Source: Ophelia neglecta (Eukaryota). Taken from it: 64,000 nt of DNA. Positions 4,411 through 63,957 of this stretch are shown here, one piece after another. The stretch's first letter is position 1, and each line of letters starts with the position of its first letter. Both the position numbers and the translations under genes were made by a program. Location of the stretch: NCBI GenBank assembly GCA_965285935.1, contig OZ260661.1, forward strand, positions 63,550,001-63,614,000, written 5' to 3'. The notes beneath the pieces were generated by a model that had not been told where the DNA came from, ran no database searches, and worked only from the letters and a program-made list of their open reading frames with translations.

Positions 4411-5101
4411 GTGAGTATCAGGATTTTAAAGGTTGCTTGATTATTATCTTTAACAAAAGCTCTTTGATGTTAATGTTCATATACTGAAGATGATAGGGAT
4501 AATCCAAGAAAGATTTCATCTGGTCTGTTAGCTTATCTTATTACAAGTTAGTCACAAGCAAAATATGCAAAACTGCCTGTTGTTATCAGAGATTACCACA
4601 GATGATACTAACAGCTAATGCCCTTTATCTGAGACAGTTTAAACCAGGATCCGTAGCTGGGATTACATGAAAAACCCAGTACCTGTGCTTACATACAGTA
4701 CAAGGAACTCCCTGTCCTTCTCTGATGTCTGTCCATTAGACTATCTATCCAATCAAGGTCTTTAGTATTGATATAGAAAGGCCACCTCAAGTGTGTATTC
4801 ATGCTGTTTCAGTGTTTGGGAGAGTCACATGTACATGTTAATACATGTTAGAGAAGAGTGGGTTTACTATTGTGATGTTGTGATATTGAATGACTGACAT
4901 GAACATGAAAGAAACCCCCATTATGTTTTTTTTGATGGTTGCATTGTACTGAGCCAATCTCTTGATCCAGTGCTGAGGTTCTTATACTTGAAACCTTCAC
5001 ACAGTGTGTCTTAAACATCCCATGTGTGTACATATACATGTAAAGTATAAGTTAAGAATGCTATTTGAGATGAATACAAGGAGAATGTAATTAGCTATAT
5101 A

Positions 5102-14100: not shown

Positions 14101-17100
14101 GGGCTCGATTGAGACCTTGTTTTAGGATTTTGATCGGCACCATGTCATTGATAAAACTTGTTTGTTTGAGACCGTGAAAAGATAAGTTATTGTGATCTGC
14201 TTAGGCAGTTCCGGTATGGAGATTTGGTTATTTACTTGATTCATAGGTGAACCATTGAAATAAATAAAATGGCTTACATGGACTTACTCATAAGTTTGGA
14301 CAACTGAATGCTATTGATATTAGCTTTACCTGGATTTGGATCAAAGTCTTCGGTAGACTGGTTGGCTGAGCCTAGTGCAGGGGTGTTTGCGTGTGTGTAC
14401 ATGGCTGAATGTTGAATAGAGGTGCCGCCAATCAGCGCCAATCAGCTTCAGATCCCACCACCTTGTGCTCTGGCTCTGTCAGGGCATATACCACCGATCT
14501 GCATGATTGACCAATACATAATCAGATCTCCACAGTTTGGTTCACTTGGTGCTAAGCTGATATCTGAGCTAGCAGGGAGCCCAGTACTGGAACTGGCAGT
14601 CATTGTAATCTGGCGGTTTAATTCTGAACTTCATACGCATTCTTTCCCCAACGAATTTTCATGCTAACATCTGGATATGTTATGGTTACTGACACCCTTA
14701 TGAATATGACGCGGAAGAAGACGCCTAGACAATGATTTTTATGTCACAAGAATTATTGCCAATTTTCGATATGGATGAAGCAAACCGTGCTGTGTTGTGT
14801 TTTAGTCCTTCAGTTGACAACAGAATGGATATAGCTAGTTTACCAACTAAAGGAATTACTAATCATTGGACCATGAACAAGTTTCAGACAGAAATCATGG
14901 GCTAAGAGACACTGAACCAGCTTCACCGGCAGAATCTAGTGGCATAATTTGTGTTGGGCATTGATTCATAGTTTCTCTGACTGATTCTCCACTTGTGGCA
15001 TTGTGGAGAATCCAAATAAATTTTGACCTGGCTTGGTTTGGTGTGTCTTTAAACAGGAAAAAGTATTTTCTACCAATTCTTATTACCCCTATTACTGTCA
15101 TTACAATGAAACAAACATTTGTTACACTTATAAAGGATGCTGTTTAATTAATATAAATCACATATTTAACAGAATACTAGTATAATTATCAAGTGCAAGT
15201 CTATCCAATGTTAGAATGAAACATTATTGAGAGTCAATTTATAACATCAAGTCAATGTGGCATATGTCAAGAAATTGACCTCTTAATCTAATTAAAATGG
15301 CATCCAAAGAACCTAGGCCCAAGAGCCGCAGTGGCAAGAAAAAGTCTCCGTCCCCGGATTACGCTGCCATGTCTGAAACCTCAGGGTCATCAAGGTATTC
15401 AGAAAGCCCCAAAGTGAAAAAGAAAAAAGTGCGAAGCCCTGCTCTAGATGTGACGCCCAGCTCCGACTCGGTCTCCCCATTGTCCAGCCCCAAAGTGAAA
15501 AGAAAAAGCAAAAGCAAGGACAGGAGTGCAACTGCTTCCCCATCCATTAAGTCAGATCGCGAGGGAAGCCCAAGTAGGGGGAGGGCAGAGTCAGTGGCTA
15601 CAACTCGAGTGTCAAGTGCCAGCAAGTCTAATCCCAATAAGAAAACCATGCTCAAATACATGATACACGAAGTCCGGGAGCTGAAAAAACAACTAGATCC
15701 AAATGCTCCTGACATTCACGTAAGACGTCGTAAAGGGGGTACTCACTCGCCCTCCAGAGAATCCCAAGCAGCAGGCTCAGTGCTTGTCCTCACTGAGTCT
15801 GATATTGAAGAGCAAGAACACAAACATGAAAAAGTGCATGAAAAAACTAGGGAAGTGATAAAAACTGAAGATGGTGAGAGAATAATTGAGAAAACCTACT
15901 CCAAGAGGGCTGAGAGCCATATATTGCGGAGATCCCCAGGTCCTCAAGAGGGAAGCCATAGTCCATTGTCTAGACGAAGAATGTTTCCTGCTGCTTCAAT
16001 GGAGGAGACTGGGGATACGGGGACGTCCCCTGTTGAAGTGCAGCTTCTTAATCAAACGTTTCCTCCCACTCGGCTGGATCACAGAGGCAAGACCCCTCCT
16101 GGAAGAGAAAGGCTTAACAGAACTACAGCAGGCATATTAAGAACTCCTTTGCCGATTGTGCAAATCTCCCATGAAGGCTCAGACTACTCACCACAGTATC
16201 TAATTGATGCTCTGAAAAAGTATGTGTTTCTTCATACATTAGTTTCAGTTTCAATTTTTAGCATGATGGGTACTAATCGTAATCAGATTCGATAGAACTT
16301 GAAAGCTATAAATGACATATTTGATTAAGCCAAAATGAATGGTAATTTTCCACTCGGTTCTTTTTTCCCTGACTCCACAGTAGGGAAGGGCCATTCTTCA
16401 GTTATGTATTGATGTAAATGACCCCATGGGGGTGTCTTTTACAACCATACAAAGGTACTAAATTTAAATATACAACAATTGATCAGGTCATCTGACTTTA
16501 CTTTTTTAGCTCCAATTTCAGCACATGTTTGATAGTAAGCTGGTAGCAGGCATTCGACTGTTCAATTCAACCCACCCTTGCACTGTATCATGTTTACATC
16601 TAAATCCTTAAACATTGGTACAGTTCTTCTTGACTAGGGGTGAAATATATTGATTATATATTATATTTCAAAGTCAAATAGGTTGATCTCTTAGCCAACA
16701 TTTTCCTTTCTACTGGCATTTGGCTTGTTAAAGCTGCTGCAAAATGAGTTTATGGAGGATTTATTTTTTTGGCTTGTCAGTAAGCTTTTTATGGTATTAA
16801 AGTTGAAACACATTCTTTACAATAAATGATTAAACACATTCAAGAAAATGATGGACTACAAGGTTTTGAGAGTTGTTGTTGCAAGTTATGAGTTATTTAT
16901 GCTGAATTTAGAATTGTATATGTTCATGCTAAAACTTGCAAGTCAATATTTTTAATGAATATGGTGATTTTGTTTTTAAACAGAGAGGGAAGCAGGGGAT
17001 TGTGTGTGATAATATATTGTACAATATTAAATAAGCTTCAAAGCTTTTAGAGAAGTCCCCTTGCTGACAGTCATACAGGAATGTATCAGAGAATACCTTG

Positions 17101-20100
17101 ATCAGCATGTCTTGCTAAATCAACATCAACCAATGGTAGCTGTGTGACATAGTCACCCTGGATCTACACGATGTGAACAGATCTTTATACCTAAGTTTTC
17201 ATATCTTAGTGTTGTTTGTACATTTAGAAAAGTTTCCTTTTTTGATACTGATCGATAATAGACTTCTCATCATACATGTGCTACCATGTCAAAATGCTAA
17301 TGGATCTGCAATCGAACATAATTTTGTGAATTGTTCGTTTTGATATAATGCACCTGTTACCTTTTTATCCAGGATATTTACTTATTGTTTGTCTAAAGGG
17401 ATCAAAGAATTGAACATACAAGGTTGGCTGTATAATATATATGTTCATGTACAGTCTCAATGGCCCACTCCAAAAGATGATTGCCTATAATGAAGCAGTT
17501 AAAAAGAAATAAATCCCTTTTGTTTAGTGAATTCGATGGCTTGATAACAGTAAATGCACTTTGATTTATTCTTTGCAATAAAACAAACAATATTTTTATA
17601 GGCTACTTTTGGTCTCTACCTTCATATTATTTTTACATACGCAAATCCAATTGAATGGTTACAAAAGTTCTAGATACAAGTTCAAACATGAGAATCTCTT
17701 ATCATAGAATAGTTTTATTCATTCAAGACCATGAACTGCATTATAAATACCATGGATCCATTTCAGTTAGATTCAGTTTTATTCATATTTTGTATACATG
17801 TATCTATCTAAGCCTAAGAAACTAAACTCCTAGTAAAACCTTAAGTTTACCAAAAGATAATTAACAAAGGTTTATTATGTATATTCATCTATGATATTTT
17901 TCTGGTGTTATGTTTTATTAGATCTGCCACTTTCAAGGAGTCACTTTTAAGAAACAATGTCCACAAACAAAAATGAGAATCCGCTGTTTTTGCTTACAGA
18001 CGCTTTGGCATAGAAGTAAAAGATTTTGGGAGCAGTTGGCGAGATGGCTACGCCTTCAATGCAATGATCCATAACATTCGTCCAGACCTCATAGACATGG
18101 CTGCTCTACCACAAAACCCAAACAGAACCAATTTGGAGAATGCCTTTTCCACTGCTGAGGATCACCTCGGCATTCCAAGACTGCTTGATCCAGAAGGTGG
18201 GACAGATGAATCCTTAATCCAACTTGATTTGAATTTCAATATTTAATCAAGCTTAATTCAGGCTAAATTCATTTAATTCAGATAAAGTTTATTATACAAG
18301 ATTTGCTCTTCCCTATAAATGCTTGGTGCTTGCTTTCAGATTTGGATGTAGCCAAGCCAGATGAAAAGTCCGTTATGACTTATGTGGCCCAGTTCCTAGA
18401 AAAGTTTCCCGACCCTGATGCTGATTTTCCAGATACCAAAGGTGGCTCCAAGGTAGAGTGTGATATTACCATTGATTGTATTTACCAAATCATTTTATTA
18501 TGGTTTTAGTAGATGAGATTGACTTAAAATTTATCTTTTCAAATTGATTTTGAAGAATTAAATGCTAAATCAGACATTTTGTTTTTATTTGAAAAGTTTT
18601 AGGATATTCATAGTTCCAATATACTATGTTTGCTTTGCCTTTCCCTTGAAAATGTTAAATTTTATGGTTTGTCTGTTTGGTAGCTGTCCATTTTTATCTA
18701 TTTTCCCCACAACTCTTAAATATCATTTGTCTGTACAGCCTGCTATACTTGTAAGCAGTAAATGGGATGATGAACTACAGATTGGAGGGGGGAACAATTT
18801 AAGTGTTGGACAACCTTCTTCATTTTTACAAGCACCAGATGCTAAATTTACACAAGTTGGGAAAAAGAATCCCAAGCTGCAGCGCAACCTGTTAGAGGGT
18901 GGTCATGAGCTGATAGCCTTTCACAGTCCAACCCTGGAGCGTAGACAGTTTAGAACAGATCTAAGGGCAGCACTGAGTGCCGGAGCCTCCCCACTAGGCT
19001 CTCCACAAGGCACACCCCCAGTACAGAGGAGAATGTTACCTTCTTCAGACGAGTTCAGGTCCAGTATGGACAGCCTGAGCTCAGCTCCAGATGAATTATT
19101 GAGCTCACTCGACCCTGTTGAAGCCGCCAGACTTCGAAGGATGGAAAGAAGGCGCCATGAAAGGTTTCATCTGACTCCCTCAACAGAAGACATTCACCTG
19201 CAAAAAGCAGCATCAAAAAGCCATGAGTCACAACACATTGAAGGACATAGGCACAGGAGACAAAGGACCAGACAGCTTCTGGTTCCTGGAGAGGAGGAAC
19301 AAAGAAAGTTAAGTTTACCCCCAGAACTTGATACTGTCTCTCGTGGATCTGAATCTCAAAAGCCAGAAAGGCCATTGTCTCCTGAGGAACCAACAGAAGT
19401 GGGGGGAGCCAGACCCAAATCAAAGAGACACAGGAGGGTAAGAAGGCGATCTGACCAACACAAGGGAGAACCAGAAATGGACTGTTCCACACCTGATAGA
19501 TATACAGTTCATAAGAACATTGGCCAATTGATTCCTGGATCTATTGAACATTCAGAGCCTAAACTAACTGAATCCTCTCAATTAAAAGATACTATAATAA
19601 CTTCAGAACAATCAGTTTGGGTAGAACATTCCGAATGGCAGTTGACAAAGTCAACACCACAGAAGATAACTGTAAGTGCACTACAAAGTATGAAACTGAG
19701 AAAATATCCATCACTGGAAGATTTTCAGTCTTTGAAGGAGAAAGCAGAGTTGGCACCCAAAGGTAGCCTTCAGGCCTTGTCTCTTGCGATATTTGAATTA
19801 AACAACCTGAAACCAGATAGGACCAAAGCACCTGAGCAGCCAAAAGAACCTAGTTGTCAATTAAGGCCCTCAAACTATGACTCTTCTAATAAAGTAACTA
19901 CACAATTATATGTTGGACCTTTAGACGCATCAAGCTGGAGATTGTATCCTACCATGGCAGATATTCAGTCTTTGAAAGAAAAAGCTCAAATTGCCCCTGC
20001 TGACAGTCTCCAGTCATTGGCCCTGACTGTTGTAGAACTGCCATCAGAGGGTTATTTGAAAAGTAAGTCAAGTGAAGAACTGTTTCTAGAGCAGCCAGGT

Positions 20101-23100
20101 CAAAAAAGACCAACAGAGACTGTAGTAGTTAAAGGAACAACACTGCAAAAGGAGGAATCTACATGTACTGGTAAAATGGATGCTGAAGCAACACAAGCTG
20201 AAAACTTAACAGTAGATGTTCTTCTAGAACCTGCTTCAAGTCTAAAGAAAGATATTGATATGACAGCTAAAGTAGATTGTGATATAAAATCTGGAAAGCT
20301 AACTCAAGAAGCCCCTGATGACAGGTTCCAGTCAGTTCCTGGACTGGATCTGCCAGCAGATGGTAATCTTGATGAGAGTTATAAAACTGAGTCTCTGATC
20401 TTAGAGCAGCTGGCTCAAAATAGACCATCAAGTCCATCTGAGAATATAATTCCAAAAGCACACATGACAGAGGATACCAGCAACAATGGTGATTCTGTAC
20501 ACCAGGCAGAGGATGTGGTAGAGGGTGAGAATAAATTAATCTCTCTGAATACAGAAAAGGATGATGATGTGACCTTGAAAGATGTGGATGATGCAGAATC
20601 TCTGCAGAATGCTCAAGATGCTCCTGGTGAAGAACTCCAGTCTTTTGACCTTGTTGTAGGAGAACTGCCAGGTGAGGTTGATCTCAACAGAAGTGATATT
20701 ACTGAGGAACAGCTGGAGGAAAATAAAATGCCCGAGTATTCAGACATTAATGGTAAAAAGTCACTGTTGGAAAGGGATACATGCAAAACTGATATTTCTG
20801 GAAATCAGGGGGAACAGACAAAGATGGATGTTGATACAGGGAGTTTTGTTACTTTGGAGAAGGATGCTGACTTAGCATCTAGACATGTGGATCAAAGTAA
20901 CCAGGCCATGAAAGAGAGTACCCAACCCGAGCCTGAGCAGACACAGGGCATTAAGGAGGAACTCCCTACCGAGGCAGTTTTAACCAAGGGCAAAACTGAG
21001 GAAAATCTCTCAATCGAAGGGGGTTTAACCAAGAGCAGTGGTATTGAAGAATTCCTTCAACAGGAAACGCTTCCAAATCTGCCAACAAAACCATCTGAAG
21101 TTAGGAGAGCAGAAGTTCACAATGTGGAGGGTACAGACAAAGCTGACAAATCAGGATATGAGGCTGATACAGTTGCTGAAAGAAAGGGAGAAGCTCAAAC
21201 TATTGAGAGAGGTAAGGAACCAGATATTTTAAGCATCCAAGACAGAGAAACTTTGGACAGTTCTGTATTGATAAAAGTGCCATCACTGGATTCTGGCGTG
21301 GAAACAGAACAAGACCAAGGCCATGTTTGTGTAGAGAAGCCTGAGGTCAGTCAGCCTGAGGACCATGTATCCAGTGAGTTTGAGTTTCTGCGGATTGCTG
21401 ATGATGATGAGGTGGCTGTAGACTCTGGTAGTGAGGAGAGGAGAGCAAACCTGGGTTACCAAGTAATCCAGACGCCAGAGAGACACAAGGTTCTTCCACT
21501 TCTCTTATTGAGCTTGTTGCATCCAGTTAGTGGAATGCCCCTCTCCCATTGGACTAACATCCAGCCTAGCTATATTAAGGCAACCAGCATTATAGCTGTA
21601 CTACATTAGAATGTCTTGAAATGTACTGCAAGATATAACCATCTTTCTGTGATCTTGTACTGTTACATTAGTACCATACATGTCCACCCTATCATCCTTG
21701 GTTTAATATGTGTTCTTCTTCCATTTTTGAGTGAGTTTTCTGAATTTCCCTGTAATTATTACTCAAAGGAACTGATCTTTATTGAGTAATATAACATTTT
21801 ATTGCAGGTCCCCTGAGTGTTTCTTATTTTATTATGTTGTTAATTAATTCTTTTGATTCTTTGCATTGGAATTTCTCCTGACCATTGCATGATATTTGAC
21901 AACATCATTAATGGTGAGACTTCCTTTTGAGATTGTGTGTGCAGTGTATTATTGTTTCCTATTTAAGACTCATTCTCGTCTGTCCTGTCTGATTTAGTCT
22001 CATCTGTCCTGTCTGATTTAATCGTGCTTCTCAATTTCAAAAAAGTTGGATAAAAGCCCTTTTTAGAATAAAGGTCACCTATTAGGTACCTATTTGCAGC
22101 CATGATTAATGATTGTTGTAGATGTACATGTACTGTATATTAAGCTTATAACGATTGGCTAAGTGATTACTTTTAAAAGAAATGTTTTCTGCCATCCAAA
22201 CTTTGCACTTGCTCTGTTGTAAAAGGACTAAATTATGTAAACATGTTCCTTTCTTCCACACAGTGTATATATTGGTTTTCCCAGGGAGCTCCTTGTACAG
22301 TGACACATTATGTTAGGTCCCTGTTGTCTTCATGTTTGCTGAATCAATATCAAACCCGCAACCGTCAGCTTCCCTAGCAAGCTCCATTTCTCTGATCTGA
22401 TTATTAACACTCAGACATTAGACCTCTGCATCAATATTTTATATTAGTGATTTATTGTTCACAAATATAATATTTGACATTGCCAGAATATTTGTAAATA
22501 GCAGATTACCACTGAAGTGTTGTTTGTTACTAATATTTAAGGAATGCCATCTTTAATAGATAGATAACAAAAGTTGGTTAAAGCATGAATGAAATAACTT
22601 TACTGTTATAGAAGTTAATTGAAAACAAAAAAAATTGTCAGAATTAGTCAATAAACATTTAGTACTTATTTTACATTTTCAAAACCATTTAATTAAAGTA
22701 TACTGGTGATACTAAATTATGCATATTTCAGTTGATCACATTGACTTAGTTAATTGGTAAATTGTCAGCTTTACAAACCTAGTTTGTTTGTTTACAGCTT
22801 GTTGTGCAGGTGGATGCAGCACGTCGGGAAGCTCTGAAGGAACAAAAGGAGTATGATGAACTTATTATGTGGCTAGACCAAGCAGACAACTTACTGAAGA
22901 TAGTAGACAGCCCTGTCCATGACAGGCAAGAAGAGTATAAGGTTAGCTGACCACTTGAATTATTATTTGTTTGTTGTGCATATGTACATGAATTCTTCAT
23001 TTTGCTACAATGGCCATATAAATGTTTTTTTTTATAGAACAACTAATGGCTGTATATAAGGTCAAGCATGGGGTGGAGGGCTATAGAGATTCTAGAAAAT

Positions 23101-41100: not shown

Positions 41101-44100
41101 ACAGGTTGTCTTAATATAGAGGTGGTCTTTAAGCCTGGTTTCTCTGTATAATGTTCTATATCTATAACAGTTTAATTATCTATTTGATACTACAAACTGT
41201 GTTACCCCAGAATTTAAGTATTCAATATCTATTTAGCCTCCTTTTTCACCTCATGACAACCTGCAGTTTGCAATTTTGGTCATTAGTGAAATTTTCTTTT
41301 GAAAATTTAATTAAAATTTACATTAACGTATTAACACCTAATCCAGGATCATGTCAAGGAGTGTGAAGCCTATGTGACCCACAACCAGTTGTACAGCGAC
41401 ACTCTGATCCAGACCCGAGAGTGGCTACAAGGTTTAAACGACAAGCTGGATGTCTGCATGGAGCCAGCTGCTGATAAACACAGTGTCCAGAACAAGCTAG
41501 ACAGACTACAGGCAAGAGACAATCTTGATGAGTATATCTAGACAATGGGTAGACTATGTTACCAAATCTTCTCATGTGTTTATTGCCAAGACAGAGGGTC
41601 AAGTAAAGCAAATGAATATATTTGAAAAAAAGATTGATATAATGGTAAAAATGTAGGCTTACAATAATGAATTTGAATAGCTAGTATTATATAAGGAATG
41701 TAATACAGTTACTGTAGGTTTTGCTGCAGTCAATGTGAATAAGGGCTAATTGTGTTTTCACTATAAAACTTATTTTGCTATGAATGTCTTCTAAACAAAT
41801 CATAGATATTAAAGATTTAAATGTGAGCTATCTAGAAAAAAAAGACATCAAAATATCATGTATAATAACACTTAATCTGATTAGTAGAAAACATTAAGTG
41901 TTTTTTACTGTATTTAGGAATTACTGCCCACCAAGCAGGAGGGAGAGTCTCGTATTGCCATGGTAAAGAGCCAGTCTGATAGGGTCCTGCCTCAGACTGC
42001 TCCCACAGGCCAGCAGACGATCAGACGAGAGCTAGAATCTCTCAATATTGACTGGGCTCGCTACACCTCCAAGCTGGCAGACACCAAGACCGGGCTGGAG
42101 GAGACGCGTAAAGCCTGGGAGGACTTTGACGGGCTCTATGACAAGCTTGGCAAATGGATGAGAGAGATGGAAGGCCAGATCAAAGACTACGAGCTCAAGT
42201 CCACTCTCCAGGACAAGCAACAGCAGGTCAACAGGTTCAAGGTGGGTGCCAACTTACCATACAGGTGTTTTGTGGACAATACCTACCCTGTGTATGTTTA
42301 CACAACATTGAACCTTGAAGTTCACATATAAACTTGATGCCTAGGAAGTCTTAACAGATTGCATCACTAACATTAGACATGCATGAAAACATGCCAGTGA
42401 AAATTACCATTGTTATACTTCATTTTGTAGGATTATTATTTATGCTTATTTATTATAGAAATTATTAATTGTTTATTGTGGCTTTTAAATTATCACTAGT
42501 GTAGAATTAAGTTTTTTTTAATAATGTAGTTAAAGTTGCCCACTTAGTTAGAATTGCCCCTTTCATTTATAGACCATAGTCTTTTCACTGCATTAATGCC
42601 TGTAAACCAAGTCCTCTCACCCTTTGATATGATATTCCATTACAGTATTCTACCAATCCTTCCAATGTTATGGTACAATATTAATGCCATTATCTGTGAC
42701 ACTTTTACCTAGGAAATAGAGCATGAGATTCGTTCCAAGCAGACAGAGTTCAAATCATTAAGCGTCAAGACTGAGCCTGTCTCTAGTGGGCTGGGTTCCC
42801 CTAGACCTAACCCACCCCAATCCAGAGCTTTAAGCAGTGTCCTGGCCTATAGGGTTGGTTTGCTGCCACCAAGCTTTGTTCCTGTCTAGAACTACTTAGT
42901 ATAAGAACTAGCCTCCTTGACTTCTAACCACCCATACTTTAAGCATAAATCCCAAATAAAATAATGTGTAAATATAAAAAAGTGCACAATCCGTATATTG
43001 AAACCCACTTGGTTAATTCACACTGTACATAAAATAAAATATCATTCTGTTTTTATTTAATTTTTCTCACTATTAATCAACATTAAGAGCTTGTTTAATC
43101 ATCATCAGGGTATCTATACACTTTCTTGATGATGCTGCAACTGAAGAAGATCCTCGTTTTTACTTGAAATTAACACCTTAAATCATAGTACCCCCGTATA
43201 AAAATGACTGTCATGTAAAACATGTCTTCTGTATCACTGCTCAGATGTTTCATGGAGTTTCTATTCTCCACAGCATTAAGACAGGGTACAATGTTTTTCC
43301 ATGCTCCCTGTGAATACTCCCCGCGAATGGCCTAGCGGACATGATGTCACAGTAACTTGGGTTGGTTTCTTCAAGCTATAAGAACATCAATTATGTCACA
43401 ATGAACAACATCATGATTGCGGGGAGCATTTAAGGGGAGCTTTGAAAAGAATTGATCCCTGCCTTAATACCCTTGTGTTGCATTTTGCAAAACTTTGATA
43501 ACTTATAGAGAAAACAGTCTAACTTGAAAACCAACGCTCTTCCAAACTGTGTTAACTTAGTTTAATGTGATGAGGTTTGTGTGTGTTTCAGTTAGCATTT
43601 GTGTAGACTAATGACTGTGAAATTATTATTGCTTTTGATAAATTTCTTCTCAGGATAATTTATCATCATTCAGGTGCTTTTTTTGCTTAAAGACTGTAAA
43701 TGTTTTGTTTCAGAATTTCCCTACATTCTGTCCAAAACAGTTTTAGTATTAAAATGTACAAAAGGAAGCATAGAGGTCAAATTATACTGTTATTTATTTC
43801 AAAAGATATTTTATAGCAAACTAGAAAATACAACACGATTGTTATGAACAGACAGTTTATTATATAAAGGCCGGCATTTTATCCATGTACTGCTATCTTT
43901 AGGTAAAATTTATCCAATATTTCTAGGCCCAGCAGCAGGATATAGCCAGCCGTCAGCTCGACTTCGAAACAATCAGCGTCAAGGCTCAGAATCTAGAGCT
44001 GGGGGAGACCAAAATGGCTGTATACACCACCCAACTCAACCACAAATATCAGACTCTGAAGAGTAATGTCAAGGTCATTATTTTACCTGTTTACTTTATA

Positions 44101-47100
44101 CATGATGAGCAAAACATATTAAACTTGGAATTTCTAACCATTTACTAGCATTATCAAGGCATTTATTTTTTTTCACAAGTAATACTATATTGTTAAGACA
44201 ATATTTATCAATACTATAATAATAAATTTTGTATATATAGATTTATAGTGTATTTATAAAATTTGGACTTTTCAGGATGTGATTGCCAAATGGGAAGTCT
44301 ATGTCCGTGAACACCAGCAGTATGAGGCTAACTATAATAGTTCAATGAAATGGCTGAATGATCTGAATAAACGCCTGACTCAGTGCGTGGACTCTAGTGG
44401 TGACAGACACATCATCGAAGAAGTCCAGATGCGTTTACAGGAGCTCTTCCAGGAGAAGGAACAAGAGGCAGCCCAGATCCACCAGACCATTGATCAGGGG
44501 GAGAAACTGTATCCCAACACGGCCGTGGAGGGACGGGAGATCATCAGACAACAGCTGCGATCCCTCAGAGAGAAATGGGAGAGCATCAGTGACCGCCTTT
44601 CAGAGAATCAGAGGACACTGGAAGTCTCGTTGGTCCAGCTCTCCAGCTATGAGGACAGCTTCAGCCAGTTCCAGAAGTGGCTGACCGATATAGAAATCAA
44701 GGTGAAGAGAGAAGGCGAGCCCAAGGCCTCCCTGCAAGAGAAGAAAATCCAGCTGCAGAGCCACAAGGTTCAGCACCTGGACATCAAATCCCATGACAAT
44801 GTACTAGAATCCCTGCTGGAGCGTGCTCAAGGGCTCAGCCAGCCACGAGTCAAACAACAGATAGAACATCTGTCCAAACAGTACACAGATTTGTGTCGGT
44901 TCAGTGAAGAGCAGCTTGCAAAGTTTGAAAGCAATGTCAATGAGCACCAACAGTATCAGGACTCCTATCAAGAATGTACCGACGCACTGACGGCCATCAG
45001 AGAAAAAATGGCTTCCGGAGGAGATTCTACTGGGGACCATTTTATCATACAAAATAAGCTGGAAACTGTCCAGGAAGTCATTAGTCAGCTCACTGAGTGT
45101 GAACAAAAAGTGAAGCTTACCTCGGAGCTGTGTGACAAGACTACCCTGAGCACCACCATGACTGGCCGTGAAATGTTAAGAAGAGAGATGGCCATGCTGA
45201 ATGATGACTGTAAAAATATCTTGTCAGAGGCTGAAGATACTAAGGTGACCTTGGAAGAGGCCCTGTCCTACTGGCAAGAGTTTGAAGACAGCCACGATGC
45301 TCTTCTACACTGGCTCCAGAAGATAGAACTACAGCTTAAAGACTCAGAATTAAAGTCCAGTCTGGAGGAGAAAGGACAGCAGGTGGACAAATTCAAGGTT
45401 GGTTTGGACAGATTAACTTCCTCCTTTCCAGATCTGTTTATGAAAGTATGCCTTTATACTCTAAATAGTATCTATAAAGGATCTTGGTGCAATTTCAATT
45501 GCATGTATTTAAAACAATTGAAGGTGTTAAATGTCTAATTTCTGGTATCTTACAGAGCCTGAAGGATGATATTCATAGTAAGCAGAGTGATGTAGACAAG
45601 TTTACAGATGTTGCTCAGAATCTGATGCAGACCAGCAATGACATGAGATATGGCACCTATGTTACTCAGGCCACCAACAGATATAGGCTGCTACAGGCCA
45701 ATGTTAAGGTTTGTACCTAACACATGAATGAGTGGTTTGGCAATTTATAACCTCTTTAACCTAAAACCAGCATACATAATCACTAGCCTTACATGACTAA
45801 GGCAGAAAACTACAACTGTGAATATGTAAAATAGAAACAATTAGTAAATTAGCTCTAATAAATGCATTTTATAAATGAGTGTTCCTACAACATGTCTGTT
45901 ATAACTGATAAAACTGTACAATGCCTTGCAGGAGGCTGTGACTAAATGGGAGAAGTATGTTTCTGAACATATCAAGTACCGAGAAAAGTATAAAGAGTTT
46001 ACCGAATGGTTAGCTAACTCCAAGACTAGGATAGATGACGTGGCTGACATGTCTACAGACAAGGACTCGTTGGAGCAAGGCCAGGACACATTACAGAGTC
46101 TGCTCGGGGATAAGGAGGAGGGCATCCAGCGTCTGAACGCCTGTATACAGTACGGAGAGAAGCTCTATCCTGACACCGCCGCTCCAGGCCGCGAGAAAAT
46201 CAGACAGCAACTACGCACGGCCAAGGATGTCTGGGACAGCCTGCTAAGTGACATGATTGAGATGCAGCGACGCTTTGAGAGCTCGCTGGAGCTCTGGTCT
46301 GCTTACAGCAGTGGGGCAGAGGAACTGGATAAATGGATACTGGAGGTAGAAACCTGGCTTAAAACAGACACAGAACTCAAAAATACACTTCCCGAAAAGA
46401 AGTCACAACTACAAAACAACAAGGTAGGGCTGGTCTGATCATTGGTCTATACTGTTCGAAACTTGCTATATATTGTTTTATTCTTTTTATTTATGCTTTA
46501 TTTTTGTGTTTTAGAAACATAATTATTAGCACGGAATTGATTTATTTGCAGGCCCTGATGCAGGATGTAAATTCCCATGGTAGAGTGGTTGACAGTGTTC
46601 TGGAGAAGGCCCAGACTTTGTTACACTCCAGTCAGAACACAGAGGTCTCCCAGTTTATCAAAGACATCAAGTCCAAGTACCTGTCATTACAGAACATGGC
46701 CAAGGACGCCATCGTGAGGTCTGAGACCCGTGTCCGAGACCACACACTCTACACCGAGTCCTACAGCTCAACCTGTGATTGGCTACGACTGATGAACGAC
46801 AGACTGGGCATGTGCAGTGACCTGTCTGGAGACAAACACTCAGTAACCAACAAGCTGGATAGAGTCCAAGTAAACCATATAATTATATATTATATATTAG
46901 AATATTCTAAGTAATATAAGTATGAAAAAACATATACAGTGAGTTCCTTTATCTGAGAGGGCCTCCAAAGAGGTGTTCAAATATGTGCCACAGCAACTTT
47001 TCTCATAAGGAAAGTGAGTTTGAGGAGTTTCTGGAAGAAAATTGCATGAAATTCAGTATGAGAAAATGAAAAAAAGTTTTATTTTAGCCGTTTTGGAGGC

Positions 47101-50100
47101 TGGGTCAGGTTACCAGAAATACATATCAATTTTATTTGGCCTAAACATAAATAAATTGCTTACATACTAACAAGAGTTATCTTCTTTGTGTTTTTAGGAT
47201 CTGCTGAGTTCGAGGGGTGATGGTGAGAGTAAGATTCACTCCTGCGAGGAGTTTGCTCAGGCAACCATGACCAACACGGGCCTGGTCGGCAAACAGAGCA
47301 TACAGCATGAGCTGGAGCTACTCCGCAAGGACTGGGCCAGGTACGAGGCAGAAGTGACCGAGACGAGAGACAGACTGAAAGAGGTCCTAGCTAAATGGCA
47401 GGAGTATGAACTCAACTACGAGAAACTGGTTCAGTGGATCAAGGATATGGAGAAGAAAGTCAAAGACTTCGCACTGGTGCCTACTCTAGATGAGAAAAAG
47501 GCTCTTGTCAAGAAATATCAGGTGGGGTTTTAAATATTTATACATTGATGGTGTCAAGGCAGTTTTATTTTCATACTACTTAGTTAGCTCATTTCAATTG
47601 GTTGAACATATCTTCTTGCATTCTCTGGATGTGTATCTATTACTTCGTAATCACCTGGTGTCAGGAAAGAATTAGCTAGATTTCAGGAGCAATGTTGATT
47701 ATAAATTAATACATATGTTACACTGTCAGCATTTGCTCTGTAAGGGTATACTGGTAAAAGGGGCACATTACCTGATTACATTTTATAACAAGATGAAAAT
47801 ATACAGCTATTAAATAGCTGGCCATTATAAAATGCATACAACCAAGAGCTTTGAATAAGTGTATGGGAATCTGCACCACAGTACTTGAATACCACTTTGA
47901 TTTCACCATGTTTCCCAGGAACTCAAGCAACACATTGTTTTGGGGGAAGATCAAATACTCACTTTGGGTTTTGAAGAAAATGTAAGAGCACCAGCTTGGT
48001 TTAGACTTGCAGTTTTAATCCTTCAAGCACCTAATTTGGTTAACGGTTACATTTATATAGATGTTGCTGGTTTCATTATAAGCTTTAACTGGTACCATAA
48101 CCCTCAGCGCCACAGGCAGCAGACAACATTAGGAATATGGAAGTAGTGGTATATTGTATATTGTCAGCAAGTAGTATGGCTTGCTAATCAGACCCCTTCA
48201 AAATCATTTTTATCAGCTGACCACATCACTCCATCCGACACCTGACACACTGCTACTTGCATTAATATCACTGATGTTGTCCGCTGCCCATGGTCTATAC
48301 CATCCCACCCGCCCAGCCCAACCCAGCCAAACACAAGGTTACCATGTCTGACCAGAAGAATGGCCGCTGTTAACCCTTTTGCACGCTTTCACTAAATCTG
48401 TTCATTCAGTCATATCCACAGACGGGTACAGGTTGTTTAATCACCGCCCTCATAATATATTTGTATCTGGTTAACTTCATATATGACAAGGGTAATGAGT
48501 GTAAAGCAAATGCACTTCCAAAATGACAGTAAAGTGTTCATTTAGAATCGGTATAAATATTTGCAGTATTGGAAGCAGTATATATACAAAAACTGCAATG
48601 CTGTCTTATGTAAGATGACAATGTTGATGGTAATAAATTATGACAGATAAATAGTCATGTTATTGTGCAAAAATTAGAACTACATTTCCAAGTACAAGTA
48701 CATTTGTGACATGTTCTTGTGTAAATAATAACATTACTACTTCACGTAAGCATTTAAGATATTAAAGTTATAATTAATGAAGTAATTTTAGAGTTGATAA
48801 CATTGTTTGAAATTGCATGATTAGTATGTTTAATTGTTAACACATAGCATGAGCCTGGCGGATTTATATATTACTTCTGATTAATATTTTATTTAAATAG
48901 TAAAATCTGCATGTAGTGACTATTAAAGACTAACAAAATAATCACATAGCAGAGCTTTAAAATAAGAATGATGTCCCAGTCACCTAATAATAGTTATTAA
49001 TTAAGAAAACACCGTTTCAACATTTGTAGATGATCACCTGTAATTTTACACAATTAAAACATGCAGCCCTTTAGAGAAGTCTCATGTAGTGAACCATTCC
49101 ATTTTGCAATTACGTGCACAGTAGAAATACATTTAATTTTCAAAGGCATTAAAATAAATTAATCATTTGAATAAATGACATAAATGTATTTCTTTACTTG
49201 CTACCTATTATAAAACAACAAAGTATAACACACAGGATTGTTGCATGCTAATAAACCAATCTTATCATCATAATAATATACTTTTTGGTCAATAGCATGT
49301 ACCTGTAGTAAAACTATCCATATCAACATGTAAAAACTATCATGCCATGTGATGTTTTCTTCCTGAAGTCTTGACATATACTGTTTATATTTGATTAGGA
49401 GTTGCTGCAGACTGTTAAAAGCAGACAGTCTGAGCTGGACAGCCATGCGGACAGTGGACAGATACTGGCCACTACCACTGCTGAGTCCAGGGTGACCATG
49501 TATAGCTCACAGCTCAGCACCAGATACCAGTCACTGCTTAACTCCATCAAGGTACTTAAACAATACAATATATATCTATCAGTAAGAGTCAGCAGGAGAT
49601 CATTAAACTGGTGACAGTTCTGTATCCTTCATCATATATCAAATTGGGGGCTTTAAAAGTTTGTTATTCTCAAATACACATACCTGTACACGTATGTGTA
49701 CCGAAATATATGATATTCAGATATGATTACAAATCATCTGCAGGAAATTCTGAAGAAATGTGAACAGAATATCACAGAACATGAAGCATTTAACGATAGA
49801 CACAGCGACGCGAGTCGTTGGCTGAAGGCCGCAAAAGACAAATACGCCCGATGTGGTGACCTGAGCAGCTCCCGAGATGACCTGCAGATGAAGCAGGCGG
49901 TTGTTCAGGAGCTTTCACAGGAGAAGGACACGGGGTTGTCCAAACTCAACGCTGCCATGGAGGCCGGAGAGAAACTGTACCCGAACACGGCGGCAGAAGG
50001 GCGGGAGGCAATCCGTCAGCAGCTGAGAACACTCAAACAGGATTGGGATACCCTCTTTGACGAAGTGATGACCTCCCATCGTCAGCTGGAGGTCAATCTG

Positions 50101-62100: not shown

Positions 62101-63957
62101 AATGGGAGTGGAGCCTAAGGCGGAGCTAACTGAAAAGAGGGCTCAACTGGAGAAGTTTAAGGTATTTGTCAATACACTGTGTCCAAGCCACAACAACTGA
62201 GTGATTTTATCAATATCCTTGTTTACACATGTAGAATCTCATAAAGCATGATGGTTGGTTTTACAAATGGTAATATATATCCTTGCTGCTAAGTGTTTGC
62301 ATGCAGCATTAAGTGTGCAAGTATTGAACACAAGTTCATATGATTGTATTGTGACAGGATTATTGATTTTTCAGGCTTACATTCTTGCTAATCCTTTACC
62401 TGGTGTGTGTCTGTACATGGGTATTTTACTCATGATCTCTCACTTGCTTCTCTAAAATGTGCAGGAAAAATGCTGGTTGTTGAACTTTGTGAAAGTCATA
62501 TACTTGCATGGCTATCTCTACAAGCACCTGGCACTAAAGATAAGCCTCAGACATTAAGATACATGTGTGTATGCCCGTGTATGTTATACAGTGGAAATTG
62601 ATGGTAAATTAAGGATAATCATGGCCTGTTGAGTGACGGCCCCGCAGTATGTCCAAGGATGTTCCATTTGGCATATGTAGTAAAAGTGTGTAAGAAGGTT
62701 GAAGTACATGCCAATCAAAGGTTAAGTGTTTTGAGATAAAACTTGTGTTTGGCCTTGGTAGCCTTATTTACTACAGCGTGTTGACAAATGATCTCACATT
62801 ACAATGATAGAGATTAGAAAAAAATAGATACCCATACATATGTGTAAAGAAGATGTTATATGATGCATTATGGGACATTGTCCATGTTGGTGCTGCCTGT
62901 GTGTTAATAATTTCTCTGGGTTTTTCTCTGCAGTCGCTGCTTGCTAATCTCAGCAGTCACCATGAGCAGATGGACGAGGCGGCGGGCCTGGTGGCCCAGC
63001 TGAAGGACAGCTGTCCAGACAAAGATCTGGCCTCCCAACTCTCTGACCTACAGCAGAGACATCAACGGGCCCAGGAACAGGTCCAGGTAAGATCACTGCA
63101 CAGGCTCTCTACAGTCAGTGGCAACCCTACCATAGCTCTCTGGCTTGTTTACATATAAGTTTAGCATCAGTTGAAAATTTATATAGTGAAACTCAATCCG
63201 CAGAAAGCAGGGGAGGTTTTGATGTATACACTGCGTTAGTAATCACATTGTTTGGAATTACAGTTTAAAGTAGATGTATATTTGCCAGGTCTCTGTTACA
63301 AGTAGTGTCAAAGCTAGTGCTGCACCAATGTGCAAAGTTCAGTATAAACCTCAAGGACTGTAACTACTTTTGTTTTGTGATATTTTGTCAGGAGAACATA
63401 GCCAGCTTGAAGAGTGCCTGTGAATTACAGAAGTCCTACCGGGAAGCTCTTCAGGAGTGTGAAAAATGGATACTCCAGATGTCCTTCAAACTCATGTCTC
63501 ACAACACACTAGATGTCAGCACTATCGAAAGAACACAACAACAAATCGAAAAGCACCAGGTTAGTATTAATATATGGGGTTGCATTATACTACTTGTTAT
63601 TTATACTCAAAACAAAACTGCATCATTGTGACATATTATTATTTTCCAATGTTTTTTATTGGGTTATCCCATTTTTACATAAATCCTAATTGTGTTAGCT
63701 TTTGTTGGTCCATGGCATGACGCTAATTTTACAAACTCTTTGAAAACTATGACATGTCTGTTGTGTTGTTTGTGCCTCAGGAGTTGCTGGCTGAGATTGA
63801 TGTGTACCAGAGCCAGTTAGACAGTGTGAGGGAGCAGGGAGAGGCTCTGATCACGGAGAGCCACCACCTGCCCTCCTTGGTGCAGCAGACGGAGACCCAG
63901 CTGGCCAACATGGAGGAGAGCTACCTCTCACTGCAGGCCACCGGCACACAGATCAAA
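3951..63957 (+). CDS. SYNE1: Giant nesprin (nesprin-1/Msp300-like), multi-exon, 3'-partial: CH1-CH2 actin-binding domain plus spectrin-repeat rod; 61 exons, about 7,000 aa in window
   Basis: Spliced translation gives [18 protein letters not shown]...[35 protein letters not shown] (nesprin-type CH1), [14 protein letters not shown]...[26 protein letters not shown] (CH2) and the nesprin motif [22 protein letters not shown], followed by dozens of Trp-marked spectrin repeats. All junctions are GT-AG (one GC-AG) with compatible phases. Confidence 0.93.
5104..5135. repeat. Poly-T tract (32 nt)
   Basis: Seen directly. Confidence 0.95.
6085..6146 (+). CDS. SYNE1: Nesprin exon, start of CH1 ([21 protein letters not shown])
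   Basis: tttttcag acceptor, GTAAAT donor, canonical CH1 motif. Confidence 0.95.
6353..6448 (+). CDS. SYNE1: Nesprin exon, CH1 ([32 protein letters not shown])
   Basis: 96 nt, phase 0-0, CH1 motif DLFEDIKDG. Confidence 0.95.
6652..6735 (+). CDS. SYNE1: Nesprin exon, CH1 ([28 protein letters not shown])
   Basis: 84 nt, AG acceptor, GTAAGT donor. Confidence 0.95.
7700..7719. repeat. Poly-C tract (20 nt)
   Basis: Seen directly. Confidence 0.95.
9023..9115 (+). CDS. SYNE1: Nesprin exon, end of CH1 ([31 protein letters not shown])
   Basis: 93 nt, strong pyrimidine tract, GTAAGT donor. Confidence 0.96.
9451..9629 (+). CDS. SYNE1: Nesprin exon, CH1-CH2 linker and first helix of CH2 (IEEFTK...[14 protein letters not shown])
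   Basis: 179 nt, phase 0-2, GTAAGT donor; Ser-rich linker typical of nesprins. Confidence 0.93.
14427..14446 (+). promoter_or_regulatory. Tandem CCAAT boxes (GCCAATCAGC x2), candidate internal promoter element
   Basis: Perfect 10-bp direct repeat matching the NF-Y consensus, about 850 bp upstream of the ATG at 15297. Confidence 0.4.
15297..16219 (+). CDS. SYNE1: Putative alternative internal first exon of nesprin (307 aa, Ser/Lys/Arg/Pro-rich), skips CH1
   Basis: aaaATGg start, long GC-richer ORF inside the 8.4-kb intron. Donor AA|GTATGT at 16220 is phase 2, matching the CH2 exon at 18000. Confidence 0.75.
18000..18196 (+). CDS. SYNE1: Nesprin exon, CH2 ([16 protein letters not shown]...PRLLDPE)
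   Basis: Phase 2-1, canonical CH2 motif. Confidence 0.96.
18340..18452 (+). CDS. SYNE1: Nesprin exon, end of CH2 ([24 protein letters not shown]...)
   Basis: Phase 1-0, AAG|GTAGAG donor. Confidence 0.95.
18739..21489 (+). CDS. SYNE1: Giant exon (2,751 nt, 917 aa) encoding a low-complexity, repeat-containing insert between CH2 and the spectrin rod; probably alternative
   Basis: Acceptor tttgtctgtacag| is in phase 0 within the 1015-aa ORF. Candidate weak donor AAG|GTTCTT is phase 0; otherwise the frame reads on to the stop at 21609. Confidence 0.75.
21974..22021. repeat. 24-bp tandem duplication (TCTCRTCTGTCCTGTCTGATTTAR x2)
   Basis: Seen directly. Confidence 0.9.
22798..22941 (+). CDS. SYNE1: Nesprin exon, first rod exon ([26 protein letters not shown]...)
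   Basis: 144 nt, phase 0-0; second in-frame acceptor at 22810. Confidence 0.88.
23180..23289. mobile_element. Internally deleted TA-flanked MITE, same family as 56233-56410
   Basis: TA|CAG...CTG|TA ends; shares CCCTAAATCYAAGGAAA..TGGCCCTACATTGCAGGTGGCCCTYCATGG with the 56-kb copy. Confidence 0.8.
25582..25893 (+). CDS. SYNE1: Nesprin rod exon (contains [22 protein letters not shown])
   Basis: 312 nt, CAG acceptor, GTAAGT donor, nesprin-family motif. Confidence 0.93.
26036..26317 (+). CDS. SYNE1: Nesprin rod exon
   Basis: 282 nt, TAG acceptor, GTGAGA donor, [13 protein letters not shown]. Confidence 0.92.
26556..26652 (+). CDS. SYNE1: Nesprin rod exon
   Basis: 97 nt, phase 0-1, GTGAGT donor. 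Confidence 0.9.
26927..27132 (+). CDS. SYNE1: Nesprin rod exon
   Basis: 206 nt, phase 1-0, GTGAGT donor. Confidence 0.92.
27642..27712. repeat. 19-bp minisatellite (TAATGGGTTAAACTCAGAG, about 3.7 copies)
   Basis: Seen directly. Confidence 0.92.
27808..27869. mobile_element. Possible minimal piggyBac-like element
   Basis: TTAA|CCCTTT...AAAGGG|TTAA; short terminal inverted repeats only. Confidence 0.45.
28593..28910 (+). CDS. SYNE1: Nesprin spectrin-repeat exon
   Basis: 318 nt, phase 0-0. Confidence 0.9.
29269..29592 (+). CDS. SYNE1: Nesprin spectrin-repeat exon
   Basis: 324 nt, phase 0-0. Confidence 0.9.
29888..30052 (+). CDS. SYNE1: Nesprin spectrin-repeat exon
   Basis: 165 nt, phase 0-0. 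Confidence 0.9.
30188..30469 (+). CDS. SYNE1: Nesprin spectrin-repeat exon
   Basis: 282 nt, phase 0-0. Confidence 0.9.
30643..30807 (+). CDS. SYNE1: Nesprin spectrin-repeat exon
   Basis: 165 nt, phase 0-0. Confidence 0.9.
31885..32105 (+). CDS. SYNE1: Nesprin spectrin-repeat exon
   Basis: 221 nt, phase 0-2. Confidence 0.9.
32384..32492 (+). CDS. SYNE1: Nesprin spectrin-repeat exon
   Basis: 109 nt, phase 2-0, [12 protein letters not shown]. Confidence 0.9.
33231..33402. mobile_element. Degenerate MITE-like element with internal direct repeats
   Basis: Ends CCGTATTTGA...TCGAATAC; internal repeats TAAAACATTGCAATAAGYGC x2 plus AATAAGTGC. Confidence 0.5.
33455..33775 (+). CDS. SYNE1: Nesprin spectrin-repeat exon
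   Basis: 321 nt, phase 0-0. Confidence 0.9.
33902..34219 (+). CDS. SYNE1: Nesprin spectrin-repeat exon
   Basis: 318 nt, phase 0-0. Confidence 0.9.
34380..34697 (+). CDS. SYNE1: Nesprin spectrin-repeat exon
   Basis: 318 nt, phase 0-0. Confidence 0.9.
34914..36836 (+). CDS. SYNE1: Nesprin large spectrin-repeat exon (641 aa, about 6 repeats)
   Basis: 1,923 nt, phase 0-0. Confidence 0.93.
37293..37628 (+). CDS. SYNE1: Nesprin spectrin-repeat exon
   Basis: 336 nt, phase 0-0. Confidence 0.9.
37868..38836 (+). CDS. SYNE1: Nesprin spectrin-repeat exon (323 aa)
   Basis: 969 nt, phase 0-0. Confidence 0.92.
38967..39119 (+). CDS. SYNE1: Nesprin spectrin-repeat exon
   Basis: 153 nt, phase 0-0. Confidence 0.9.
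39265..39429 (+). CDS. SYNE1: Nesprin spectrin-repeat exon
   Basis: 165 nt, phase 0-0. Confidence 0.9.
39571..39897 (+). CDS. SYNE1: Nesprin spectrin-repeat exon (GEKLYPNT type)
   Basis: 327 nt, phase 0-0. Confidence 0.92.
40775..40915 (+). CDS. SYNE1: Nesprin spectrin-repeat exon
   Basis: 141 nt, phase 0-0. Confidence 0.9.
40969..41146. mobile_element. TA-flanked MITE (Tc1/mariner-pogo type), 178 bp
   Basis: TA|CAGTGAAACC...GGTTTCTCTG|TA with internal GGTGGTCT subrepeats. Confidence 0.8.
41347..41511 (+). CDS. SYNE1: Nesprin spectrin-repeat exon ending at a GC donor
   Basis: 165 nt, like its paralogous exons; donor CAG|GCAAGA. Confidence 0.87.
41918..42241 (+). CDS. SYNE1: Nesprin spectrin-repeat exon
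   Basis: 324 nt, phase 0-0. Confidence 0.92.
42713..42889 (+). CDS. SYNE1: Putative alternative exon, diverged duplicate of exon 43927: cassette to 42853 or terminal exon to TAG at 42889
   Basis: Acceptor cttttacctag|, phase 0. [21 protein letters not shown] resembles [21 protein letters not shown]. Donor AGG|GTTGGT; AATAAA at 42955 and 43033. Confidence 0.6.
   Translation, partial: EIEHEIRSKQTEFKSLSVKTEPVSSGLGSPRPNPPQSRALSSVLAYRVGLLPPSFVPV
43280..43463. mobile_element. TTAA-flanked MITE with about 50-bp terminal inverted repeats (Kolobok-like termini)
   Basis: TTAA|GACAGGGTACAATGTTTTTCCATGCTCCC... pairs with ...GGGAGCTTTGAAAAGAATTGATCCCTGCC|TTAA. Confidence 0.75.
43927..44073 (+). CDS. 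SYNE1: Nesprin spectrin-repeat exon
   Basis: 147 nt, phase 0-0. Confidence 0.9.
44276..45397 (+). CDS. SYNE1: Nesprin spectrin-repeat exon (374 aa)
   Basis: 1,122 nt, phase 0-0. Confidence 0.93.
45556..45708 (+). CDS. SYNE1: Nesprin spectrin-repeat exon
   Basis: 153 nt, phase 0-0. Confidence 0.9.
45932..46423 (+). CDS. SYNE1: Nesprin spectrin-repeat exon
   Basis: 492 nt, phase 0-0. Confidence 0.92.
46552..46869 (+). CDS. SYNE1: Nesprin spectrin-repeat exon
   Basis: 318 nt, phase 0-0. Confidence 0.92.
47198..47521 (+). CDS. SYNE1: Nesprin spectrin-repeat exon
   Basis: 324 nt, phase 0-0. Confidence 0.92.
49399..49551 (+). CDS. SYNE1: Nesprin spectrin-repeat exon
   Basis: 153 nt, phase 0-0. 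Confidence 0.9.
49744..50235 (+). CDS. SYNE1: Nesprin spectrin-repeat exon
   Basis: 492 nt, phase 0-0. Confidence 0.92.
50594..50746 (+). CDS. SYNE1: Nesprin spectrin-repeat exon
   Basis: 153 nt, phase 0-0. Confidence 0.9.
51246..51410 (+). CDS. SYNE1: Nesprin spectrin-repeat exon
   Basis: 165 nt, phase 0-0. Confidence 0.9.
53137..53301 (+). CDS. SYNE1: Nesprin spectrin-repeat exon
   Basis: 165 nt, phase 0-0, AAG acceptor. Confidence 0.87.
53650..53808 (+). CDS. SYNE1: Nesprin spectrin-repeat exon
   Basis: 159 nt, phase 0-0. Confidence 0.9.
53946..54098 (+). CDS. SYNE1: Nesprin spectrin-repeat exon
   Basis: 153 nt, phase 0-0. Confidence 0.9.
54261..55715 (+). CDS. SYNE1: Nesprin spectrin-repeat exon (485 aa)
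   Basis: 1,455 nt, phase 0-0. Confidence 0.93.
55850..56173 (+). CDS. SYNE1: Nesprin spectrin-repeat exon
   Basis: 324 nt, phase 0-0. Confidence 0.92.
56233..56410. mobile_element. TA-flanked MITE (Tc1/mariner-pogo type), 178 bp
   Basis: TA|CAGTGGTCC...GGACCACTG|TA, about 29-bp imperfect terminal inverted repeats, internal GTGGCCCT subrepeats. Confidence 0.85.
56501..56662 (+). CDS. SYNE1: Nesprin spectrin-repeat exon
   Basis: 162 nt, phase 0-0. Confidence 0.9.
56791..56955 (+). CDS. SYNE1: Nesprin spectrin-repeat exon
   Basis: 165 nt, phase 0-0. Confidence 0.9.
57070..57396 (+). CDS. SYNE1: Nesprin spectrin-repeat exon
   Basis: 327 nt, phase 0-0. Confidence 0.92.
57656..57787 (+). CDS. 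SYNE1: Nesprin spectrin-repeat exon
   Basis: 132 nt, phase 0-0. Confidence 0.9.
57968..58153 (+). CDS. SYNE1: Nesprin spectrin-repeat exon
   Basis: 186 nt, phase 0-0. Confidence 0.9.
58347..58979 (+). CDS. SYNE1: Nesprin spectrin-repeat exon
   Basis: 633 nt, phase 0-0. Confidence 0.92.
59106..59429 (+). CDS. SYNE1: Nesprin spectrin-repeat exon
   Basis: 324 nt, phase 0-0. Confidence 0.92.
59759..59911 (+). CDS. SYNE1: Nesprin spectrin-repeat exon
   Basis: 153 nt, phase 0-0. Confidence 0.9.
61360..61524 (+). CDS. SYNE1: Nesprin spectrin-repeat exon
   Basis: 165 nt, phase 0-0. Confidence 0.9.
61835..62161 (+). CDS. SYNE1: Nesprin spectrin-repeat exon
   Basis: 327 nt, phase 0-0. Confidence 0.92.
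62934..63086 (+). CDS. SYNE1: Nesprin spectrin-repeat exon
   Basis: 153 nt, phase 0-0. Confidence 0.9.
63392..63559 (+). CDS. SYNE1: Nesprin spectrin-repeat exon
   Basis: 168 nt, phase 0-0. Confidence 0.9.
63781..63957 (+). CDS. SYNE1: Nesprin spectrin-repeat exon (last in window; gene continues)
   Basis: 177 nt, phase 0-0, GTGAGT donor. Confidence 0.9.

Follow-up and report, generated by a model that had tools for sequence, protein, structure and literature searches.

The segment 42713-42853 on the plus strand of the window (the whole 64,000-nt stretch of Ophelia neglecta DNA analysed here) is, as judged from its conservation, a functional coding exon under protein-level selection, whose reading frame and both splice sites are kept in an orthologous locus (L022). 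This exon, termed A, lies between exons U (41918-42241) and B (43927-44073), which are followed by exon D (44276-45397), all on the plus strand of a nesprin-1 gene. We put the chances at about even that exon A is an optional in-frame cassette spliced between exons U and B. Its layout, a helix copy followed by a proline linker and a helix restart, is kept across a deep split.

The host gene encodes a nesprin-1

Pfam profile matches identify the gene on the plus strand as an orthologue of nesprin-1/Msp300, comprising a calponin-homology (CH) domain, a spectrin rod and a KASH anchor. The CH profile PF00307 matches at 18001-18195 with 51.8 bits against a cut-off of 26, in addition to a partial match at 9005-9118 that stays under this cut-off with 23.3 bits. 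In the rod, PF25034 and PF00435 exceed their cut-offs in exon D, with 56.4 and 52.4 bits, respectively, and in the exon starting at 54261. The KASH profile PF10541 is matched over 58 of 58 positions with 93.5 bits, ~49 kb past the window end, where the protein terminates in GPPPF*. The exons of the gene are mostly collinear with a 5,949-aa orthologue, and the nearest named protein to exon D is a SYNE1 fragment of the clam Tegillarca (44%). A tree of one rod segment groups the window with L022 (100/100), and Tegillarca then joins both (89/93). By these matches the host gene is a lophotrochozoan-like nesprin-1, in a tree that holds one named lophotrochozoan and gives no finer placement. The window sits on the largest listed contig of a 762-Mb genome. 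A search for very long nesprins returned 53 proteins, all but one of which are arthropod by name.

The 108 residues encoded by exon U close one spectrin repeat and open the next, of which they provide helix A and ~11 residues at the start of helix B; residues 66-108 match positions 2-44 of PF00435. The exon ends at the donor AAG|GTGGGT and is 54% identical in L022. The 49 residues of exon B normally carry helix B further and run through the loop into the opening part of helix C, with 69% identity in L022, and the rod continues in the 374 residues of exon D. A structure model of exon D (mean pLDDT 93) places the junction equivalent to U|B, at residues 164/165, ~11-12 residues into a helix that spans residues 153-187, and Pfam puts the end of exon U at position 44 of 105. 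Taken together, the model and the Pfam position indicate that exon U starts helix B and that exon B completes it.

Exon A is a single-copy exon with weak splice sites

The segment 42713-42889 reads as a 58-aa peptide in phase 0. As the sequence-only reading had it, an acceptor (...TTTTACCTAG|) and the donor AGG|GTTGGT after 42853 delimit a 141-nt exon of phase 0/0, which encodes 47 residues. Our analysis likewise confirmed the further sites that it had listed, namely the stop at 42889, the AATAAA hexamers at 42955 and 43033, and the use of the same GTTGGT hexamer after the exon ending at 45397. The GC content of exon A is 0.497, compared to a gene mean of 0.49, 0.32 upstream of the exon and 0.28 past the stop. 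Its acceptor and donor score 3.6 and 6.3 bits, respectively, in the window, and 1.4 and 5.7 bits in L022. Among the sites inferred in the window, 4 of 35 acceptors and 9 of 34 donors are weaker than those of exon A; the acceptor of exon B is weak as well, with 4.7 bits in the window and 3.9 bits in L022. Intronic decoys that score at least as high as the sites of exon A amount to 90 of 847 AGs and 31 of 971 GTs, in a decoy set that included a few real exons.

Protein search of the genome found exon A in a single copy, and a profile built from the two exon A sequences detected no second copy in 264 kb. Among the fetched proteins this profile gave no match below an E value of 0.09. The 58-aa peptide matched none of 25 candidate proteins of 103-2000 aa, and its sequence is absent from the Atlas. 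A protein search with exon U gave 458 matches, and the 150 listed are mostly single-exon frames without the next exon. Allelic sequences came from three genomic-like contig sets, which show no splice joints and were counted as one sample of one study. They list no difference in exon A, compared to 20 sites in 1,746 intronic bases; as the chance of finding zero differences in 141 nt is 0.20, this identity was not counted as support. Exon B carries four allelic differences, of which three are silent and one changes V to I.

An orthologue of exon A is intact in a distant relative

A scan of metagenome contigs yielded 149 pattern matches, one of which was confirmed and represents locus L022. Between its U and B exons, L022 encodes ALEVESREKQTAFNSLLSYSVEVPQTLPHSAPDRHRPASRTLRTVMNYR at 4490-4636 (49 aa), behind ACAG| and before |GTTAGA. 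The global alignment of the two A peptides scores 62, reached by none of 2000 shuffles, with 19-20 identical residues over the 47 aa of the window exon; the second half alone is also conserved, with no score as high in 5000 shuffles. When open frames of this intron were compared between the species, in 589 pairings, the A-A pair ranked best with a score of 67, and the next pair scored 34. Different codons are used at 15 of 20 identical residues. Fourfold sites are saturated between the two species, being the same at 2 of 11 in exon U and 3 of 8 in exon B, and the introns between U and B gave no alignment above 100 shuffles. The divergence between the window and L022 reaches 1.23 substitutions per site in the exon D segment, compared to 0.82 between two insects in the same tree, where rates may differ.

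The sequence-only reading had asked for conservation in related genomes, and had named frameshifts or stops in orthologues as the sign of a dead pseudo-exon. In the single orthologue found, the same exon occupies the same intron and is intact. The L022 orthologue, the mostly changed codons and the unalignable introns together indicate that exon A is not a dead pseudo-exon. A dead remnant of an old duplication of exon B is in our judgement very improbable, even though the weak splice sites are matched by some intronic decoys and a profile hidden Markov model (HMM) of the related exon class misses exon A. In a neutral simulation of copies resembling exon B, at three divergence levels with 2000 runs per setting, the acceptor survived together with a frame open over 58 codons in 7.6%, 2.1% and 0.35% of runs, and exon-like GC in at most 0.2%, whereas exon A is exon-like in GC in the window and also in L022.

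In ten outgroup proteins, the stretch between U and D is 30 residues long in the Tegillarca model and 46-52 residues long in the other nine, and none of the ten has an A-like insert there. The set includes the 5,949-aa orthologue, an intronless frame on an 18.7-kb contig that is transcript-like in look. Exon A may simply be absent from these animals.

The first part of exon A shares its ancestry with exon B

The first 21 residues of exon A fit the gene's class of short exons that follow U-type exons, with a mean BLOSUM score of 17.2. Only one of 792 intronic peptides started at an AG scored higher, and this is itself a real overlooked exon; the class profile HMM alone misses exon A (E 1.8). 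Compared to the orthologous position in nine outgroup nesprins, the first 16 residues of exon A score 24.7, against 17.6 for exon B and 8.8-19.3 for all 11 paralogous exons. Because the start of exon A outscores exon B and the paralogues against the outgroups, A and B share one ancestral sequence, from which the first ~20 residues of exon A are descended. The two copies have diverged, with 7 of the first 19 residues identical.

The proposal that exon A duplicates the rod exon at 43927 thus holds for its first ~20 residues and is not borne out for the 3' half, which aligns neither with that exon nor with the end of exon U (shuffle p 0.08-0.82). A shared DNA motif, AGCGTCAAG, had also been put forward in its favour. 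The match is real and yet ordinary, since its 23 of 30 identities are tied by two others among 78 paralogous exon pairs, and L022 lacks it. A recent duplication is excluded, as exon A is older than the split from L022 and the A-B match in DNA is unexceptional. An origin by an intron-spanning duplication, with the start of B joined to the end of U, is an attractive possibility, although the 3' half of exon A aligns with the end of exon U no better than shuffles do (p 0.27-0.81).

Predicted fold of exon A

Modelled alone, exon A is predicted to form a helix over residues 2-17, a coil over residues 18-38 and a weak helix over residues 39-46, with a mean pLDDT of 68 (two sequences). Confidence is highest over the first ten residues (pLDDT 90) and reaches 56-59 in the end helix, whereas the coil is low. 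These parts correspond to a second copy of the helix B continuation (residues 1-17, 42713-42763), a 21-aa Pro/Ser-rich linker (residues 18-38, 42764-42826) and a short conserved end (residues 39-47, 42827-42853), which carries the motif SRxLxxVxxYR from residue 37 and resembles the start of helix B. The linker region contains five prolines in the window and four in L022, compared to none and one in exon B.

Further analysis of the exon ends was carried out against two classes. Tyr or Phe occupies position -1 in 262 of 662 helix-B-type ends and in 1 of 347 helix-C-type ends, and the pair of an aliphatic residue at -4 and an aromatic residue at -1 occurs in 229 and none of them, respectively. 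The last eight residues of the two A exons score -1.1/-2.3 bits against helix-B-type ends and -18.9/-25.5 bits against helix-C-type ends, a contrast inflated by the choice of the helix-C-type set by a motif at -8. For the helix-B-type fit of these eight residues the shuffle p values are 0.035 and 0.10, and over 14 residues the end of exon A fits neither class (-17/-23 bits against helix-B-type). The resemblance to U-type ends, which are helix-B-type, points to exon A being followed by exon B.

According to the sequence-only reading, the exon would break the spectrin fold. In the light of these models this is one outcome among others, as exon A supplies helix B once more and the bundle might remain folded while carrying an extra helix.

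Alternative uses of exon A

Extended through its donor, exon A could mainly serve as an alternative last exon, or as a composite exon, giving a KASH-less CH nesprin of ~3,000+ residues in which A completes helix B and is followed by a Pro/Ser tail with the conserved motif SRxLxxVxxYRV and a stop. Such ends are known: in the available sections of the respective articles, many human nesprin-1 isoforms end via intron read-in with N1-3'E UTRs (PMC3388047), and isoform B of Drosophila Msp300 is CH+KASH- (PMC8616381), providing a model in which translation runs a few codons into the intron, adds a unique tail and stops ahead of a poly(A) signal. The window fits this model in several respects. Both AATAAA hexamers (42955-43038), a possible intronic poly(A) site, lie within 150 nt of the stop, and at least two occur in 5.6% of 1031 intronic 150-nt windows. 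GC remains at 0.50 up to the stop, with a change point that favours the stop over the donor by 3 log units, and a stop follows soon after YR in both species. A faint shared element 140-185 nt past the donor in both species overlaps the second AATAAA; however, with three different scorings 18, 60 and 119 of 500 shuffles score as high, as do 164 of 2385 control pairs, which leaves the flank similarity marginal and not significant across scorings. Conservation stops at YR, where both species have AGG|GTT at the same position with G at +5 (GTTGGT at 42854-42859 in the window and GTTAGA in L022). The read-through tail beyond it (42854-42889) has 11 codons to the stop in the window, conserved only in the first V, compared to VR* in L022. 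Donors scoring 5.7 bits or more are found at 28 of 4269 in-frame positions within exons, at 28 of 218 positions before Val and at 1 of 18 R|V positions, so that, even given a conserved Val, chance would put good donors at this shared position with a probability of ~0.13 squared. In L022, no AATAAA occurs in the 300 nt past the exon, which hold only AATACA and TATAAA, presumably variant poly(A) hexamers. Early stops and hydrophobic ends are moreover common behind true donors: for the 35 inferred true donors of this gene, read-through meets a stop at a median of 10 codons, and six tails end in hydrophobic-x-hydrophobic, the C-terminal pattern of class II PDZ ligands. The V-P-V terminus that had been likened to such a ligand is accordingly a chance expectation, and L022 reads YR|VR* instead. 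From the earlier choice between a hinge cassette and an early terminal exon, the conserved in-frame exon of 141 nt, with its donor kept in L022, has stood; the terminal tail is not conserved, and we regard the terminal or dual-use form as an unlikely, minority reading.

Equally unlikely in our view are A and B as mutually exclusive tandem-duplicate exons, in which case U-A-D would leave the rod length unchanged and weaken or hinge one repeat, where the Pro/Ser coil and the short helix would stand in for the last part of helix B, the loop and the initial half of helix C. The two exons share their phases and are nearly equal in length (141 and 147 nt or 47 and 49 aa in the window; 147 and 147 nt or 49 and 49 aa in L022), have weak acceptors in both species and open with homologous helices over the first ~20 residues, and the end of exon A is hydrophobic at -1, -4 and -7, roughly on one helix face. 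The resemblance does not extend through the exon, however, since the 3' half of A is unalignable to B and the two are not the same structural element end to end. Exon A also lacks the helix-C signature of an aromatic residue at -8 and an aliphatic residue at -5, and the Tyr at its -1 position is found in a single helix-C-type end of the 347. Nor was a forcing device found, as the introns exceed 1 kb and both exons preserve the frame; by eye, among the 25 longest pairings per species, no inverted repeat common to both species could pair as a docking site. In the literature covered, which leaves out most subscription journals, we found no nesprin paper on mutually exclusive exons in a spectrin repeat.

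Exon A as a proposed optional cassette between exons U and B

The optional in-frame cassette, the preferred reading, fits an exon that preserves the frame (141 nt in the window and 147 nt in L022, phase 0/0) and whose conserved splice sites score low in each species. The weak sites suggest that inclusion of exon A is regulated, although it may be constant in this lineage. In the cassette form, exon U would provide the first ~11 residues of helix B and exon A would complete this helix, to a total of ~28 residues or ~42 Å, as computed from standard rises per residue. The 21-residue Pro/Ser coil would follow, measuring up to ~65 Å on the same basis if extended, and the VxxYR end of exon A would restart helix B, to be continued by exon B with the loop and helix C. 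Of the two candidate helices B in such a repeat, one would be packed while the other loops out. The KASH anchor would be retained. At a single place in the rod, ~3,000 residues away from its actin-binding end, the insert is predicted to create slack, a point of weakness or a surface for binding.

Optional rod inserts are already known in human nesprins (PMC3388047). The closest is cassette exon 93 of human nesprin-1, an optional, in-frame, 47-aa, Ser/Pro-rich exon in a spectrin repeat of the central rod, which the available part of that article lists without a functional test (Rajgor et al. 2012, PMC3388047). Exon A would resemble it as an in-frame, Ser/Pro-rich piece of 47 residues for a rod repeat, its optional use being deduced here from its sequence features. 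The two peptides differ in design, however. By eye, the human exon 93 peptide, as given in the accessible text, neither repeats a spectrin helix nor resembles exon A, whereas exon A starts with a duplicate of helix B and ends with a conserved helix-B-like turn. A second counterpart is DV23, a short, conserved, in-frame alternative nesprin exon of 23 residues with tissue-dependent inclusion (PMC3981789). As far as the available part of this source describes it, DV23 is a vertebrate exon near the start of the short nesprin-2-alpha-1 and its splicing was followed by PCR, whereas exon A falls ~3,000 residues into the protein and has a predicted splicing pattern. The third comparison, with the KASH-less ends described above, differs in that the tail and AATAAA of exon A are unconserved in the one orthologue, whereas its donor is conserved. 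A description of exon A itself was not found in the literature covered, from which most subscription journals and supplements are missing.

The anatomy also recalls alternate frame folding, an engineered switch with a duplicated segment and a connecting linker, in which the fold can be completed by one copy or the other while the remaining copy is left loose (PMC12344692, available sections). In exon A a duplicated segment is likewise joined by a linker, as read from sequence, but the engineered copies are near-identical and terminal, whereas those of exon A are natural, internal and diverged (7 of the first 19 residues identical). Anatomy alone, in the form of predicted helix copies and a linker, fits this design. 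A natural alternate-frame-folding switch, that is, a repeat with two helices B on a proline linker of sufficient length to bridge a helix, which splicing controls by tissue, is a long shot. Were it true, the helices could swap under tension and release ~45 residues of hidden length while the fold is kept; alternatively, the spare helix could be lent to a neighbouring molecule. According to the available part of PMC12846774, forces of a few piconewtons are enough for the unfolding and refolding of the spectrin repeats of nesprin-2, which buffer the force on the nucleus. A two-repeat construct with and without the 47 residues would be a way to ask how splicing tunes rod mechanics. If exon A is an ordinary hinge or a terminal exon, it would be one further case of the known isoform variety of nesprins.

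Other observations in and around the gene

Intron positions differ between the two species. In L022, the counterpart of exon D is split into four exons at 6756-9695, such that introns moved around exon A while A stayed. The exon at 41347-41511 of the window ends at an apparent GC donor, CAG|GCAAGA (41511/41512); L022 lacks the intron and carries both exons as one.

A second GC-rich island is located at 48217-48351, after the exon 47198-47521, in an intron at the same place of the repeat unit as exon A. Read in phase 0, it stays open for 44 codons, which include a hydrophobic stretch (best 19-residue hydropathy 1.47) and become Pro-rich at the end; the acceptor is poor, at -1.6 bits, and the region lies outside the coverage of L022. 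Between exons A and B, a hairpin at 43275-43468 has 50-nt arms that are 78% complementary and 94 nt apart. Loose contig ends at 43384-43431 suggest a multicopy element, of which no second copy was found in 264 kb.

The gene region also holds long open frames. Next to the CH exons lie frames at 3909-4484 (192 codons), 15279-16292 (338 codons, with a Met close to its start and rich in Ser/Lys) and 18562-21606 (1,015 codons), which are possible alternative first or inserted exons. Past the window, between nesprin rod exons, a 1,546-codon frame at 75233-79870 in window coordinates (L013) has Pro/Ser/Arg-rich first 150 residues, and a 457-codon frame at 91027-92397 (L014) has few charged residues; both are candidates for large unstructured alternative nesprin exons.

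Two further observations concern nesprin proteins of other animals. The 5,949-aa CH-containing frame (P0168) has, in two cluster members, a short unique tail directly after the repeat that matches the exon 63781-63957, which may represent a KASH-less end at a site other than exon A. In Ptychodera, the isoforms X1 and X2 (P0221 and P0019) show an in-frame difference of 107 residues, about one spectrin repeat, that starts in the middle of helix B.
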